IMG/VR virus record: IMGVR_UViG_3300032294_001558
DNA: 64,000 nt
Reading direction: 5' to 3' (one strand)
DNA from: a virus
A program made the position numbers and the translations under genes. The notes beneath the pieces are model-generated. The model saw only the letters and a program-made list of their open reading frames with translations, ran no database searches and had not been told where the DNA came from. Shown here piece after piece: positions 40,511-44,336 of this stretch (position 1 is its first letter; each line of letters opens with the position of its first letter).

Positions 40511-40738
40511 CTAGAAATGCGGTGGGGGGCGTGATAGGTAATCACCGCTGCCGTTGCCGTAGCCGTCGCCATAGCCGTTGCCGTTGCCGTAGCTGTTGCC
40601 GTAGTAGCCGGAGCCGTCGCCGTAGCCGTCGCCGCTGCCGTCGCCGTAGCCGTAGCCGTAGCCGTCGCCGTAGCCGTCGCCGGAGCCACACATCACTGCT
40701 CCGGCTGTGTACCACATGAAAAACGATACGTCAGACAA
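40511..40738 (-). CDS. Gly/Tyr/Asp-repeat mini-protein, copy A
   Basis: AGGAGG-cgca-TTG start. MSDVSFFMWYTAGAVMCG, then a (G-Y/D/N/S)n core, then the tail ...RPPPHF. Confidence 0.55.
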   Translation of the reverse strand: MSDVSFFMWYTAGAVMCGSGDGYGDGYGYGYGDGSGDGYGDGSGYYGNSYGNGNGYGDGYGNGSGDYLSRPPPHF

Positions 40739-40746
40739 TGCGCCTC

Positions 40747-41127
40747 CTAGAAATGCAATAGGGCATCCGACTCAAAATCGCCGTCGCCGTAGCCGTAGCC
40801 GTCGCCGGAGCCATAGCCGTCGCCGTAGACGTCGGCGTAGCCGTTGCCGCCGCCGTAGACGTCGGCGTAGCCGTTGCCGTAGCCGTCGCCGTCGCCGTCG
40901 CCGTAGCCGTAGCCGTGGCCGTAGCCGTTGCCGTAGCCGTGGCCGTAGCCGTCGCCGTCGCCGTCGCCGTAGCCGTAGCCGTGGCCGTAGCCGTTGCCGT
41001 AGCCGTGGCCGTAGCCGTCGCCGTAGCCGACGCCGTTGCCGTAGCCGGAGCCGGCGCCGTCGCCGTAGCCGGAGCCAAACATCACTGCTCCGGCTGTGTA
41101 CCACATGAAAAATGATACGTCAGACAA
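40747..41127 (-). CDS. Gly/Tyr/Asp-repeat mini-protein, copy B (longest)
   Basis: AGGAGG-taca-TTG at 41127; the track ORF runs on to 41334 without signals. Same N-terminus, tail GDFESDALLHF. The stop TAG is part of copy A's SD. Confidence 0.55.
   Translation of the reverse strand: MSDVSFFMWYTAGAVMFGSGYGDGAGSGYGNGVGYGDGYGHGYGNGYGHGYGYGDGDGDGYGHGYGNGYGHGYGYGDGDGDGYGNGYADVYGGGNGYADVYGDGYGSGDGYGYGDGDFESDALLHF
40885..41016. repeat. perfect 66-bp tandem duplication inside GY copy B
   Basis: Units 40885..40950 and 40951..41016 are identical. Each is built of 11 GCCGTN-type hexamers and duplicates 22 aa. Confidence 0.8.
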
Positions 41128-41164
41128 TGTACCTCCTAAATCCGCAATATCTCCTGCGGAGTTA

Positions 41165-42373
41165 CTACGCCGGTACATAGAGAGACACCCCGCAAGGGGC
41201 AGTAATACCTTTAGTGCTGATGCACCACAGCACCGGGGCGTTCCATTCGCCCCAGTTTTTGCCCACATAGCCGTCAGTAAAGTGGATGATGCAGTCGGGC
41301 TTAATACCTTTAGCAGCGAGGTAACGAGAGACACTGGTCGGGTCCGTACCGCCGCCGCCCTTGGGCTTAGTCACATCTGCGATAGACGTAACAGCATCGC
41401 CTTCGTATACCTCATGAGCGGCTACTGTCGTGTCCCAGTAAATCACATCGACGATCTCGGGCTTGACCGTCTCGCAGGCACTGACGATCTCGGTCATAGC
41501 ACGCCGGAGTTGTGCTTCGCCGATTGACCCACTAGTGTCGCAGGTAACTACAACGCGCTTCATCGTTTCACTGATCCTGCTCGGCATGTACGCATCCTGC
41601 GCCATCCACCTACGCGACGGTTTGCGCCACGTTGACATATCGCTACCAGCAGCATGCGTGCGGTAAAAATCTTTCAGTTGATCGCGCCAGTCAACAGTGA
41701 CTTCCAACAGGTCTTTGATACTACGATCTACGTTAGCACCCATCTTGCCAGCAGCAATAACGGCTTGCCGGATAGCGGTATCAACGGCCTTGGCAACTTC
41801 CGTCGCTTCCGACGCGCCCAGCGCTTCGCCTGACTTGCGGCTACTGCCATCCCCAGGTGCGGACTTAGCCGGCCGATGCTCGTCCATTGGTTGGGCTTTG
41901 CCGCCGCTAGCGCTGCGTTGCGCTTTCTGTTGTTGTTGTCGTTGCTGTTTCATCCGGCGATAGACCTCACCCGTATCCATCCCTTCGTACTGGTAATCGA
42001 GGATGGCGTGCGGCCACACCGTCAGCCAGTTGTCCGCCCCCTTGCCAGCGAGCTTATCGAGTTGAAGGTTGATTACCGCATCCGCCGCTATGTTGGCGGT
42101 ATCAGAGTCTTCGTCCCACAGATGCTTCCAAGTGATCATATGGAGGTAGAGCACGTGATAGTACTCGTGCAGCACAACGAAACGCAGTGTAGCGTCGTCC
42201 AGCGTGTCGATGAATTGACGGCCGACGAGTACATCACGGCCGTTAGTAGCCGCGGTGGGGAGTCCATCCGCAACAATACAGTCGCCGGTCATCATGATAC
42301 CCGACAAGGCGATGAACCTTGGTTCGCGCATGATCGCAACTCGCGCCCGTAGAAGTCTGTCTTGCTGGTTCAT
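41165..42373 (-). CDS. zincin metallopeptidase-like + VWA domain protein (DUF2201-type)
   Basis: 402 aa. N-terminal VVLHEYYHVLYLH (HExxH). C-terminal VVTCDTSGSI is a MIDAS-like DxSGS. Usual partner of MoxR-type ATPases. Confidence 0.7.
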   Translation of the reverse strand: MNQQDRLLRARVAIMREPRFIALSGIMMTGDCIVADGLPTAATNGRDVLVGRQFIDTLDDATLRFVVLHEYYHVLYLHMITWKHLWDEDSDTANIAADAVINLQLDKLAGKGADNWLTVWPHAILDYQYEGMDTGEVYRRMKQQRQQQQKAQRSASGGKAQPMDEHRPAKSAPGDGSSRKSGEALGASEATEVAKAVDTAIRQAVIAAGKMGANVDRSIKDLLEVTVDWRDQLKDFYRTHAAGSDMSTWRKPSRRWMAQDAYMPSRISETMKRVVVTCDTSGSIGEAQLRRAMTEIVSACETVKPEIVDVIYWDTTVAAHEVYEGDAVTSIADVTKPKGGGGTDPTSVSRYLAAKGIKPDCIIHFTDGYVGKNWGEWNAPVLWCISTKGITAPCGVSLYVPA

Positions 42374-42382
42374 ATCTCGCTC

Positions 42383-42676: not shown

Positions 42677-42684
42677 TGCGCCTC

Positions 42685-42972
42685 CTAGAAATGCAGTGGG
42701 GCATTCGACTCAAAATCACCGTAGCCGTCGCCGTAGCCGAGGCCGTAGCCGTCGCCGCTGCCGTCGCCGTAGCCATAGCCGAAGCCGAAGCTATAGCCGT
42801 AGCCGTAGCCGTAGCCGTAGCTAGCGCCGTTGCCGAGGCTGTAGCCATAGCCTTCGCCATAGCTGTTGCCGTCGCCGTAGCCGTCGCCGTAGCCGTTTCC
42901 GTCGCCGTCGCCAAACATCACTGCTCCGGCTGTGTACCACATGAAAAATGATACGTCAGTAGTAGCGCTCAC
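42685..42972 (-). CDS. Gly/Tyr/Asp-repeat mini-protein, copy D
   Basis: GTG start 7 nt after the ATPase stop. MSATTDVSFFMWYTAGAVMFG..., tail GDFESNAPLHF. Confidence 0.5.
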   Translation of the reverse strand: MSATTDVSFFMWYTAGAVMFGDGDGNGYGDGYGDGNSYGEGYGYSLGNGASYGYGYGYGYSFGFGYGYGDGSGDGYGLGYGDGYGDFESNAPLHF

Positions 42973-42979
42973 GACTTTA

Positions 42980-44038
42980 TCACTTCATCAGCCAGTGCGA
43001 GTCCCGGACCCAGTCAGTAAAGCTAGCGTTCAGAACGGCCCACGTCTTATTACGGGTACGAAGCAGTGATGTAGCAAAGACACACTGCACTTCTTTCGGT
43101 AGCCGCTTAACGTAAATCATCACGTTGTCTAGCGTGTCTTCTTCTGTACGCATGACGGCGCGAAACACCGTCATCATGATAGCGGCCGGGTTGTCTGGCA
43201 CCGGGGCCTTGTCCGGAGTATTGGCAATCAACGCCCAGGCAGGCAGTTTATCGGCCAACTCAACGAACGCCATCAAGTCAAACGCAGCGCGGGGGCCAAT
43301 GTTGCCTGCGATGGCAGCCAGTGTGATGTCGGGGTCGTTGATCGAAGCGCGCCGGTCTTCGCGAAGCTCGATGCTCGCAAGGTACAGCGAGCGGGGCGAA
43401 ACAAACGAGCGGCGCTTATCGCGGGGGTGGAACCCATACGGGAAATCCTCGGGCTTATCGTAGTCCTTGAAAGTGCCGAACAACTTATCCTGTTCTTCCT
43501 TGGCCCAGGCCAACATAGCTTCGTGGACTTGGTTACGCAGGCCCCACTCGACCCACTCGTCGGCAGTCGGATTGCGCATCTCGATGAACGAGACACGATT
43601 GCAGGAATGCGCCTGAAACAGATCGCCCACGCCCTCGGCCCCGAGGTTGGTTGCACCGAAGACGATGCTGCCCGGGGGCAGCGGCACCGCCCCCACCCTG
43701 CGTTCAAGCATCACGGGCAGGAGGGCGTTCTGCACTGGGCGGGAAGCCTTGCCGATCTCGTCTAGGTTAATGACCATTGGCTTTGTGCCGTCGCCAACCA
43801 GCAACACATTCGGCAGGAACTCCACGATCCGCCGCTCTTTGTCCACCGAGGGGATCTGCACATCACCTACGTCCCACTGGGTGCAGTCCACCGTCACCAC
43901 GTTATACGTGTTGGGGTCAAACAGCTTGGTGATCGAACTCTTGCCCGAACCCATCGGGCCCTCGATGATGTAGGTTTTGTCGGCACCATTGGTGCGAATG
44001 AGCTTGAAAATCTGATTGATGCTGAGTTGCAGTTTCAT
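42980..44038 (-). CDS. MoxR/CbbQ(CobS)-type AAA+ ATPase
   Basis: 352 aa. Walker A is EGPMGSGKSS and Walker B is VINLDEIGKA. Size and neighbourhood with a VWA protein fit the family. Confidence 0.75.
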   Translation of the reverse strand: MKLQLSINQIFKLIRTNGADKTYIIEGPMGSGKSSITKLFDPNTYNVVTVDCTQWDVGDVQIPSVDKERRIVEFLPNVLLVGDGTKPMVINLDEIGKASRPVQNALLPVMLERRVGAVPLPPGSIVFGATNLGAEGVGDLFQAHSCNRVSFIEMRNPTADEWVEWGLRNQVHEAMLAWAKEEQDKLFGTFKDYDKPEDFPYGFHPRDKRRSFVSPRSLYLASIELREDRRASINDPDITLAAIAGNIGPRAAFDLMAFVELADKLPAWALIANTPDKAPVPDNPAAIMMTVFRAVMRTEEDTLDNVMIYVKRLPKEVQCVFATSLLRTRNKTWAVLNASFTDWVRDSHWLMK

Positions 44039-44336
44039 GTTTCTCTCCTAGAAATGCGGGGGGGGTATCCGACTCAAAATCGCCGTCGCCGTCGCCGTCG
44101 CCGTCGCCGTTGCCGTAGCCGTCGCCGTTGCCGTAGCCGTTGCCGTCGCCGTAGCCGTCGCCGCTGCCGAGTCTGCTGCCGCTGCCGTAGCCATAGCCGT
44201 AGCCGTTGCCCCAACCGTCGCCGAGGGTGCTGCCGCAGCCGGAGCCGTAGCCGTAGCTATAGCCGTAGCCGTAGCCGGAGCCAAACGTCACTGCCCCGGC
44301 TGTGTACCACATGAAAAATGATACGTCACTTGACAT
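43917..44336 (-). CDS. Gly/Tyr/Asp-repeat mini-protein, copy E (tail frame-shifted; as printed it reads into the ATPase gene)
   Basis: ATG 44336. MSSDVSFFMWYTAGAVTFG...DFESDTPP. An 8-C run (coding strand; 44058..44065) displaces the conserved HF-TAG stop at 44048..44050. Confidence 0.45.
   Translation of the reverse strand: MSSDVSFFMWYTAGAVTFGSGYGYGYSYGYGSGCGSTLGDGWGNGYGYGYGSGSRLGSGDGYGDGNGYGNGDGYGNGDGDGDGDGDFESDTPPAFLGEKHETATQHQSDFQAHSHQWCRQNLHHRGPDGFGQEFDHQAV

Follow-up and report, generated by a model that had tools for sequence, protein, structure and literature searches.

Phage genes for Gly-Tyr-repeat proteins around an ATPase/VWA gene pair: probable amplified copies from a widespread two-gene cassette with an Sm-like partner

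A stretch of viral DNA of 64,000 nucleotides (IMG/VR record IMGVR_UViG_3300032294_001558; the whole stretch is called the window below) carries on its minus strand five short open reading frames (ORFs), A to E, whose products consist mainly of glycine alternating with tyrosine, aspartate and a few other residues (GY proteins), and which lie around the genes of an AAA+ ATPase and of a protein that combines a zincin-like domain with a VWA domain. The locus raises the question of whether these repeats are genes at all and, if so, with which protein their products would act. A first, sequence-only reading of the window had proposed a role for the GY proteins as clients or partners of this AAA+/VWA pair. 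The comparisons reported here show that a widespread phage cassette of two genes, the first of which encodes a protein with a predicted Sm-like fold, is the source of the GY genes of the window: these are extra, lineage-specific copies of its second gene. The best explanation of the locus as a whole, to which a probability of roughly 0.6 is given, is that this Sm-like/GY cassette was inserted and amplified, with the Sm-like protein as the constant partner of the GY proteins and the ATPase and VWA genes as neighbours rather than obligatory partners.

A scan of all six frames found exactly five GY copies in the window. As had been described, all of them are co-oriented and share a near-identical N-terminus followed by a repeat core; the N-terminus reads M-S-(x)-DVSFFMWYTAGAVMFG, and its first ~20 codons hardly differ, even at synonymous sites. 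The 6-nt arrays, of the GCCGTA type on the plus strand, were detected in all five copies by Tandem Repeats Finder. The cores are built of GGC alternating with TAC, GAC, AAC, AGC or CAC, that is, (Gly-X)n with X = Y, D, N, S or H and 50% Gly, and the complete proteins have 75–126 residues and net charges of −7 to −17. The window copies consist of a leader and then (Gly-X)n, with a composition matching that of the wider family discussed below; in the variant typical of the window clade, the leader (phi-phi-W-Y-x-A-x-A-x-M-x-G) is longer and Phe stands at the C-terminal end. The AlphaFold model of copy C had a mean predicted local distance difference test (pLDDT) score of 39 and predicted disorder, with a weak helix only, at residues 7–17, over the conserved N-terminal motif.

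The starts and ends of the copies are tied closely to the adjoining genes. In copies A, B and C, the start codon is a TTG that follows AGGAGG at a distance of exactly 4 nt, as the sequence-only reading had noted, while copy D starts with GTG and copy E with ATG. The mechanical ORF of copy B reaches a GTG at 41334, the homology to A and C favouring the TTG at 41127, and a remnant of a GY tail sits upstream of this copy. Copy D has no Shine-Dalgarno sequence and appears to depend on coupled translation, and an 11-nt overlap joins the ATG of copy E to the end of the Sm-like gene. The conserved 3′ end of the GY genes, CATTTCTAGGAGG (CAT-TTC-TAG-GAGG), encodes His-Phe-stop together with the Shine-Dalgarno sequence of whichever gene comes next; the 3′ end of copy C is the source of the Shine-Dalgarno sequence of the VWA gene. 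The conserved tail of the GDFES type was found in copies B, C and D (GDFES(D/N)A(P/L)LHF) and, in relatives, in copy E, but copy A has a divergent one. The coordinates first given for copies A to D could be kept, and those for copy E could not, its true end being at 44048 rather than at 43917.

The apparent 3′ extension of copy E results from the eighth C of a poly-C run, which shifts the frame. In close metagenomic relatives with seven C, copy E ends with …GDFESDTPPHF-stop right before the ATPase start, and deletion of one C from the window copy gives a 95-residue protein ending at 44048. The frameshifted version has lost the HF-stop and overlaps the ATPase start by 120 nt; the extra C could be a sequencing error or else a slippage variant that really exists. 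The window belongs to a metagenomic contig of 67,880 nt. Changes of repeat length that break the GY frame, which would speak against these ORFs being genes, were looked for in strain-level relatives (~95% DNA identity in the flanking genes), and the opposite was observed: 19 of 20 gap-free complete copies were in frame from the N-terminal motif to the HF-stop, and the sole out-of-frame copy was copy E of the window itself. The orthologues of copy E in these strains were 59, 77 and 95 residues long, and those of copy D were 89–94 residues long and in frame.

The repeats of other phages were also compared. Within each locus, a single Gly codon and a single ending for the X codons were used, whereas between loci the codons varied (GGC, GGG, GGT or GGA; TAC or TAT; GAC or GAT; TCC or TCT) and the G-[YDSN] peptide persisted. 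The composition of 82 distinct cores was G 49.9%, Y 20.9%, D 13.8%, S 8.5%, N 3.4%, K 0% and R 0.3%. In the other two frames, (Ala-Thr)n gave way to (Gly-Thr)n or (Val-Thr)n, or TGA stops appeared. Because the codons vary by locus while the peptide pattern is constant, selection is shown to act on the protein rather than on the DNA. The alternative-frame products (Ala-Thr)n and (Arg-Leu)n were rejected, since they are not conserved across loci. Another idea, that Y, D, N and H were chosen as the set read by queuosine-bearing tRNAs at NAC codons, was also dropped as a general explanation, since other loci use TAT and GAT and abundant Ser; no tRNA genes were found in the window. These comparisons show that the five ORFs are, as judged from codons and reading frames, translated genes for strongly acidic, predicted disordered (Gly-X)n proteins, with X being mostly Tyr, Asp, Asn or Ser, which change rapidly in length while staying in frame and have been amplified in the window clade.

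The gene immediately upstream of copy E, which overlaps its start codon and was missing from the sequence-only account, encodes a protein of 87 residues whose AlphaFold model reached a pLDDT of 92.6. The predicted model is a strongly bent five-stranded β-barrel that superposes on Sm/LSm proteins. In a Foldseek search of the PDB, the best match was 3BY7 (Sm/LSm-like, marine metagenome), followed by dozens of spliceosomal Sm/LSm subunits, and the top 50 matches were almost all Sm, LSm or Sm-like, with probabilities of 0.95–1.0 and template-modelling (TM) scores of 0.45–0.60. The 3BY7 entry contains at least five chains, labelled A to E, and we take it to be a pentamer. Among predicted viral structures (BFVD), the Foldseek matches included phage proteins labelled “DUF6948 domain-containing”, with TM-scores of 0.75–0.84, and cyanophage “Sm-like domain” proteins.

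The relation to DUF6948 (Pfam PF22253) was not evident from the window protein itself, which had no Pfam match at E ≤ 0.1 and did not reach the PF22253 gathering score of 27 bits. Its homologues scored 13.7–22.5 bits against PF22253 (E = 1.3e-4 for the homologue in the Rhodobacter phage RcapNL), and the neighbour of the GY gene in Pectobacterium phage Koroua (pair CDS0033/CDS0032) is a canonical DUF6948 protein (5.6e-31). Judged from the match of the predicted structure and from an iterated profile that joined the subfamilies, the window protein is a divergent member of the DUF6948 superfamily. Its own subfamily, with the signature VVDNGFVYVG...GFGQLAxEGP, comprised 1192 cluster representatives in a full HMMER scan. 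Tandem double-domain proteins of this Sm-like (DUF6948-like) type, 170–270 residues long, were also seen (P0097, P0098 and ~20 other representatives).

The link between this gene and the GY gene was examined in both directions, by three independent samplings of viral contigs, and found to be nearly constant. Sampling with window-type Sm-like proteins returned 80 loci, 62 of which had at least 600 nt of downstream sequence; a (Gly-X)n ORF with aromatic residues started within 600 nt downstream on the same strand in 58 of these 62. Of the truncated loci, many of which end inside the repeat, 14/18 also carried a GY ORF. The canonical DUF6948 genes of IMG/VR, where at least 589 stretches match one peptide pattern, were followed by a GY ORF within 600 nt in 62 of 64 untruncated loci. 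In the reverse sampling, a degenerate DNA pattern for GYGDGYGDGY was used, and other subfamilies were detected by a profile iterated from two canonical seeds; a DUF6948-superfamily gene was found just upstream in 100 of 103 evaluable GY loci (49 of the window type and 51 of other DUF6948 subfamilies), and on inspection the upstream sequences proved to be genuine, ordinary globular domains rather than repeats. When the region was compared with deposited phages by megablast, only the repeats matched, in seven unrelated phages, and the pair was present in all seven; in RcapNL (pair gp47/gp46) and MW202613, the gene directly upstream of the GY gene is a homologue of the 87-residue ORF of the window. 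Additionally, the pair was present in seven of eight further loci, namely two viral contigs that a search with the DUF6948 protein of Koroua returned and six contigs of metagenome-assembled genomes, the latter including Alphaproteobacteria such as Bosea and Rhodoblastus, Dehalococcoidia, Bacteroidia and Janthinobacterium. All-against-all clustering of the ORFs neighbouring the GY modules revealed no other recurrent neighbour family. The protein of predicted Sm-like fold and the disordered, poly-anionic, Gly-Tyr-rich protein are thereby shown to form a near-obligate, translationally coupled pair.

The two members of the pair also vary together, the DUF6948 subfamily co-varying with the leader type and architecture of the GY protein. 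The typical GY product outside the window clade has a hydrophobic leader of 4–10 residues, then the repeat, made almost entirely of Gly-Tyr, Gly-Asp and Gly-Ser dipeptides, and then a stop; the leader is of the x-L-T-L-D type with the window-type subfamily and of the M-E/A-x-V/I type with the canonical subfamily, and the GY partners of a third DUF6948 subfamily mostly bear an additional uncharacterised N- or C-terminal domain. At one locus (L106, 4912–5619), a single uninterrupted frame runs through a canonical DUF6948 domain and a GY core of 86 residues, which is either a natural fusion of the module genes or the result of a lost stop codon. A programmed frameshift joining the Sm-like and GY ORFs was rejected for the window, where the GY frame is closed one codon before the ATG.

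Several further observations were made on the GY genes of other loci. In L194, L167, L149, L216, L135 and others, the GY proteins carry a C-terminal domain of ~110 residues (…AFWRS..DG.PANGG…GPLK.C..GTLHAT…GERWW…), and other GY proteins, P0003 among them, carry an N-terminal “GAC.EG” domain or DUF7666; these extra domains matched no characterised family, and none in Pfam. In L025 (1576–3502), a more distant relative, the N-terminal motif E-I-x-Y/F-A-Y-L-L-C-Q-A heads one GY-repeat ORF and several small non-repeat ORFs, a pattern which suggests that the GY leader may combine with other bodies. The GY gene is unannotated in Iodobacter phage PhiPLPE (NC_011142 / EU876853, 46048–46200), where the DUF6948 gene lies at 46271–46642, and in MW202613 (26884–27198) it is labelled “lamprin”, a probable artefact.

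Table 1 Features of the window in and around the GY genes
Feature	Position	Strand	Remarks
GY copy A	40511..40738	-	75 aa; divergent tail GDYLSRPPPHF; closest paralogue of C
GY copy B	40747..41127	-	126 aa; net charge -17
Zincin-like + VWA protein	41165..42373	-	DUF2201_N + DUF2201; HEYYH motif at residue 69; phrog_1314
GY copy C	42383..42676	-	97 aa; tail GDFESDAPLHF
GY copy D	42685..42972	-	95 aa; start 8 nt past ATPase stop
AAA+ ATPase	42980..44038	-	Walker A GPMGSGKS; phrog_1297 (3.6e-45)
GY copy E	44048..44336	-	Ancestral gene 95 aa, ends ...DTPPHF*; as sequenced frameshifted, continuing to 43917
Poly-C run	44058..44065	-	8 C in window, 7 C in relatives
Sm-like, divergent DUF6948-superfamily protein	44326..44589	-	87 aa; homologous to genes upstream of GY in RcapNL, MW202613
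Terminator-like GC-rich hairpin + T run	44613..44628	-	Between DUF3150-like and Sm-like genes; conserved in L005
DUF3150-like protein	44642..45577	-	311 aa; Pfam 1.8e-3, below cut-off; synteny in L011, L016-L025
Strong terminator-like hairpin	39515..39540	-	11-bp stem

The association with the ATPase and VWA genes, which appears so tight in the window, was not general. Relatives were found by a search of viral contigs with the VWA protein, and GY ORFs were sought within 6 kb. In three of them (L010–L012, VWA 56–60% identical), there were neither GY nor Sm-like genes, and ATPase and VWA were directly adjacent (in L011, the DUF3150-like, ATPase and VWA genes abut in this order); three more distant ones (L013–L015, VWA 36% identical) also lacked GY genes. 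The DUF3150-like gene is the conserved upstream neighbour of the ATPase in relatives without the Sm-like/GY pair, and the hairpin between the DUF3150-like and Sm-like genes of the window marks the upstream edge of the inserted pair. Conversely, among 200 module loci (1.43 Mb) sampled independently of ATPase and VWA, an ATPase homologue was present in four and a VWA homologue in two, one of these loci being a known relative of the window. The co-occurrence to be expected of a MoxR–VWA system with GY as its third component was therefore found neither in L010–L015 nor at the 200 loci, and, since so few of the latter had homologues, the GY proteins are no conserved third component of the AAA+/VWA system. 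The proposal that they are clients or partners of this pair thus lacks comparative support.

Where closer relatives do carry GY genes, their position and number vary (L016–L025). L016 has the order DUF3150, Sm-like, GY, ATPase, degenerate GY, VWA; L017 has no GY gene after the Sm-like gene and two between ATPase and VWA; and in L018 and L023 GY genes lie on both sides of the Sm-like gene, L023 having none between ATPase and VWA. Within the window, a 300-nt repeat (40545–40844 versus 42483–42782, 84%) was found in which the junction of the B tail and the A head matches the junction of the D tail and the C head, and copies A and C share a unique internal segment. The duplicated junction and this shared segment indicate that the GY copies spread by segmental duplication or recombination. 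A mobile-element origin was rejected, no terminal inverted repeats having been found. A near-identical strain contig (L305, ena:ERZ27247978:k141_2687771, 3196–5400), compared with L306, carries the Sm-like gene, copy E, the ATPase gene and a single D-like GY gene, next to which stands the gene found after copy A; VWA and the remaining GY copies are absent, either by deletion through recombination between GY paralogues or by assembly collapse.

These observations point to the following course of events in the window clade. The cassette was inserted into an older early operon of DUF3150-like, ATPase and VWA genes; its GY gene gained the longer N-terminal amphipathic helix motif and the Phe-ending C-terminus, and recombination or segmental duplication then placed copies of it at the junctions around ATPase and VWA. 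The last codons of each GY copy contain the ribosome-binding site of the next gene and, because each copy brings this site with it, translation downstream is undisturbed. The ATPase and VWA proteins would be neighbours, not obligatory partners, of the GY proteins.

As for the function of the pair, the 1:1 coupling, the one natural fusion, the co-variation of leader and subfamily and the analogy with the tails of Sm, LSm and Hfq proteins lead us to propose, tentatively, that the GY protein is a detachable low-complexity tail of an Sm-like oligomer and acts as a sponge or mimic against proteins that handle nucleic acids. The short GY leader might dock on the Sm-like ring, and the result would be a multivalent particle displaying flexible, poly-anionic, Tyr-rich chains. 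Such chains may lend themselves to higher-order assembly and, in the manner of a sponge or nucleic-acid mimic, to contacts with surfaces that are rich in Arg or bind nucleic acids; the targets would be host or phage RNA- or DNA-handling proteins, early in infection. This possible mechanism is preferred because alternating Tyr/Asp chains suit such binding and because of the location among early genes. A more specific and rather doubtful version is that, in phages of many bacterial phyla, the Sm-like ring (providing valency) and the GY chain (providing sticky, poly-anionic tails) might build a condensate or brush in which host proteins that are Arg-rich and bind nucleic acids (such as defence nucleases, nucleoid proteins or proteins of the RNA degradosome) are sequestered early in infection, the five copies of the window being an amplification of dosage or variants.

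Some points weigh against this explanation of the locus. The assignment of the Sm-like fold depends on moderate TM-scores (0.57–0.60) to PDB entries. The Sm-like domains are near neutral, with a median net charge of 0 to +1, and simple charge complementarity between domain and acidic GY tail was for this reason rejected as not apparent. The in-frame fusion in L106, the only one seen, may be a sequencing error, and no repeat fusions were present among 149 representative Sm-like proteins checked. No defence or anti-defence family was matched. Finally, two distant loci, with proteins 23–32% identical to those of the window, also embed the Sm-like/GY pair in a cluster of ATPase, DUF3150 and VWA genes: L051 (45–3406) has the order ATPase, x, Sm-like, GY and a DUF3150-VWA fusion (one ORF of 504 residues), and L103 (1726–7595) has ATPase, ..., Sm-like, GY, DUF3150, ... 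and VWA. This pattern may reflect shared early-operon ancestry in one phage supergroup or a lineage-restricted functional link, and such a link of the GY pair to the ATPase/VWA cluster in some phages is possible.

The last two loci are part of the case for a functional interleaved operon, comparable to MoxR-VWA remodelling pairs, whose AAA+ ATPase and zincin-VWA protein would have the GY proteins as clients, substrates or adaptors. The tight interleaving, co-orientation and translational coupling in the window and the GY genes between ATPase and VWA in L016 and L017 also fit such an operon, and the clade-specific N- and C-terminal motifs might serve as recognition tags. However, the GY leaders of L051 and L103 are of the ordinary LTLD type or related to it and lack the window-clade motifs, and none of 323 phage records with a homologous ATPase was picked up via GY repeats. 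Together with the adjoining ATPase and VWA genes in L010–L012, the scarcity of both at module loci, the differences in GY copy number and position between strains and the strain contig without VWA, this makes the operon improbable. Less probable still is that the repeats are functionless microsatellite expansions, or elements acting at the level of DNA or RNA (protein-binding arrays, recombination hot spots), in which the GY frame is incidental. The uniform codons within a locus do show that slippage or concerted evolution has been at work recently, contigs often end inside the repeat, paralogues appear to mediate deletions, and the residues used are those that a single mutational step from the Tyr codon TAC can reach. 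Yet the hydrophobic neighbours F, C, A and V are strongly under-represented relative to D and S, the start contexts and leaders are conserved, and both the constancy of G-[YDSN] while the hexamer and the other frames change and the 19 in-frame strain copies with their conserved tail point to a coding function. An RNA-level signal was also sought; there was no Rfam match, and the folding energy was no better than that of shuffles (z = 0.07).

Two other readings accept the GY proteins as gene products. In one, they are the scaffold of a condensate or hydrogel, with [G/S]Y[G/S] stickers nucleated by a multivalent Sm-like ring, by analogy with the LSm proteins of P-bodies, which bear low-complexity tails. 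The alternative offered by the sequence-only reading, that these are low-complexity, possibly condensate- or fibre-forming acidic proteins, fits the data in this respect, given the pLDDT of 39; 50% Gly and 21% Tyr in strict alternation, the obligate pairing with a protein that probably forms rings, and five strongly ribosome-bound copies, which suggest a high dose, also favour a scaffold. There are eukaryotic precedents, since YG/GY domains such as the Gly/Tyr-rich, low-complexity YG domain of PEX13 form selective phases (PMC12173945) and the low-complexity tail of Lsm4 drives the assembly of P-body granules (PMC2064791). At the same time, with Asp so dense (14%) and Lys absent, homotypic phase separation should be disfavoured unless there are cations or basic partners, and we regard a scaffold as rather unlikely, while noting that it overlaps with the Sm-like/GY cassette as explained above rather than excluding it. 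The other reading applies to the window clade: a Gly-rich linker with an acidic, Phe-ending tip (GDFESDAPLHF) would mimic the tail of bacterial single-stranded DNA-binding protein (SSB), competing for or recruiting the host proteins that interact with SSB. The C-terminal tail of bacterial SSB is …DFDDDIPF, to which the GY tip bears an apparent resemblance; the terminal Phe is conserved across the clade (HF, TF, LF, NF), and in other phages the module is often near Erf, SSB and exonuclease genes. But most GY proteins elsewhere stop right after the repeat and have no such tip, the tips in L018 and L023 are basic (…KHAKTF) rather than acidic, and a further constraint on the last codons is that they contain the Shine-Dalgarno sequence of the gene downstream. 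With the tip not conserved outside the clade and no SSB with a similar tail encoded in the window, this mimicry was rejected as scarcely probable.

The neighbouring genes of the window were largely as first described. The DUF2201-type assignment of the zincin-VWA gene was borne out by Pfam (2.3e-25 and 7.9e-13) and by its HEYYH motif; its family, phrog_1314, carries the label “HNH endonuclease”, a probable annotation artefact. The ATPase is a clear member of phrog_1297 with a Walker A motif, but its MoxR-type character was less certain, since AAA_5 matched only at the borderline (E 1.4e-4, 22.3 bits, cut-off 22); some of its phage homologues are annotated as MoxR-like. Its nearest cultured relatives, ~25% identical, belong to Vibrio, Acinetobacter, Pectobacterium and roseobacter phages of ~75 kb, which are presumably N4-like. 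Sequence searches found no relative of the ATPase or VWA protein in the PDB. The hairpin at 39515–39540 probably ends the co-directional operon.

Outside this region, the ORFs of the terminase large subunit (52590–55217), DNA polymerase (31758–34535) and helicase (27504–29975) are unusually long and have internal matches to endonuclease families, and the related contig L004 has an Intein_splicing match in the terminase; the three long ORFs probably carry intein insertions. A second tandem repeat, (GGGGGCGGC) x7, lies on the plus strand at 50246–50311, within a minus-strand ORF (49241–50380, 379 residues, no PHROG hit).

The statement that no described family accounts for the GY proteins held in all searches made, since Pfam, PHROG, NCBIfam and PADLOC gave only compositional matches below threshold (TrAA12, SGP, serine-rich protein, keratin head). 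The sulfur globule proteins (PF17228) scored 14.8 bits against a gathering score of 26.7 (E 0.053) and the TrAA12-like family (PF22807) 15–26 bits against 30.9, in the repeat only. Homology search with copy C returned one true orthologue (P0001), the rest being unrelated GY-repeat proteins, some of them fused to DUF7666 or other small domains. The leader-plus-core look of the GY proteins resembles that of the precursors of RiPPs, peptides made by ribosomes and modified after translation; no RiPP enzyme family was found among the neighbours, and the leader mostly has only 4–8 residues. In the literature searched, DUF6948, the repeat strings and phage GY-rich proteins were unmentioned, the GY-rich literature being eukaryotic only.

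The module, for which PADLOC, PHROG and NCBIfam gave no matching family, is therefore rated as a new kind of phage gene pair, of which the window is an unusual, amplified instance. If it is as it appears, a gene pair of hundreds to thousands of phage genomes has escaped description, and it was likely missed because the low-complexity gene is skipped, masked or mislabelled by annotation and because assemblies break inside it. If the proposed function is true, the pair would be a genetically tractable natural example of a folded oligomer with a detachable low-complexity tail in prokaryotic viruses, with relevance for disordered phage proteins and perhaps for bacterial phase separation and nucleic-acid mimicry. 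Cultured phages that infect Pectobacterium, Dickeya, Vibrio, Ralstonia, Iodobacter and Rhodobacter make the module accessible. As a practical warning, GY paralogues foster rearrangements and assembly breaks in phage genomes.

Compared with known systems, the gene upstream of copy E belongs to the same superfamily as Pfam DUF6948, as a divergent subfamily; DUF6948 has no recorded function, and no account of its pairing with a GY-repeat gene was found. The succession of an AAA+ ATPase and a VWA protein in the window recalls the MoxR-type pairs RavA-ViaA, CbbQ-CbbO, NorQ-NorD and CobS-CobT, from which it differs in that the window VWA protein also has a zincin-like DUF2201_N domain; the GY proteins, as said, are not a conserved third component. 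Among Sm-fold proteins, eukaryotic SmB/D1/D3 and LSm4 have Arg-Gly (RG) or Gln/Asn tails, and the C-terminal tail of Hfq is acidic and competes with nucleic acid. The phage pair shares with them a small, predicted Sm-like barrel and a disordered, compositionally extreme tail, and L106 has the same one-chain layout; in contrast, the phage tail is usually a separate, coupled gene with Gly-Tyr-Asp-Ser chemistry instead of Arg-Gly or Gln/Asn, and the phage protein has no sequence homology to Sm or Hfq, its fold match being moderate (TM 0.57–0.60). The small early T4 proteins GoF, MotB.1 and Frd.2 have a predicted LSm-like fold and are suspected of a post-transcriptional role (PMC12152347). They are the closest published phage parallel, although their sequence family is unrelated and no repeat partner was described there. 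Other Gly/Tyr-rich proteins include the [G/S]Y[G/S] domains of the FUS type, high-Gly/Tyr keratin-associated proteins, GY-rich proteins of mollusc shells and the sulfur globule proteins. The phage GY proteins resemble these in composition and predicted disorder, not by homology, and are set apart by their strict two-residue periodicity, high Asp and lack of Lys, by their size of 40–150 residues as stand-alone proteins, and by their tie to an Sm-like gene.

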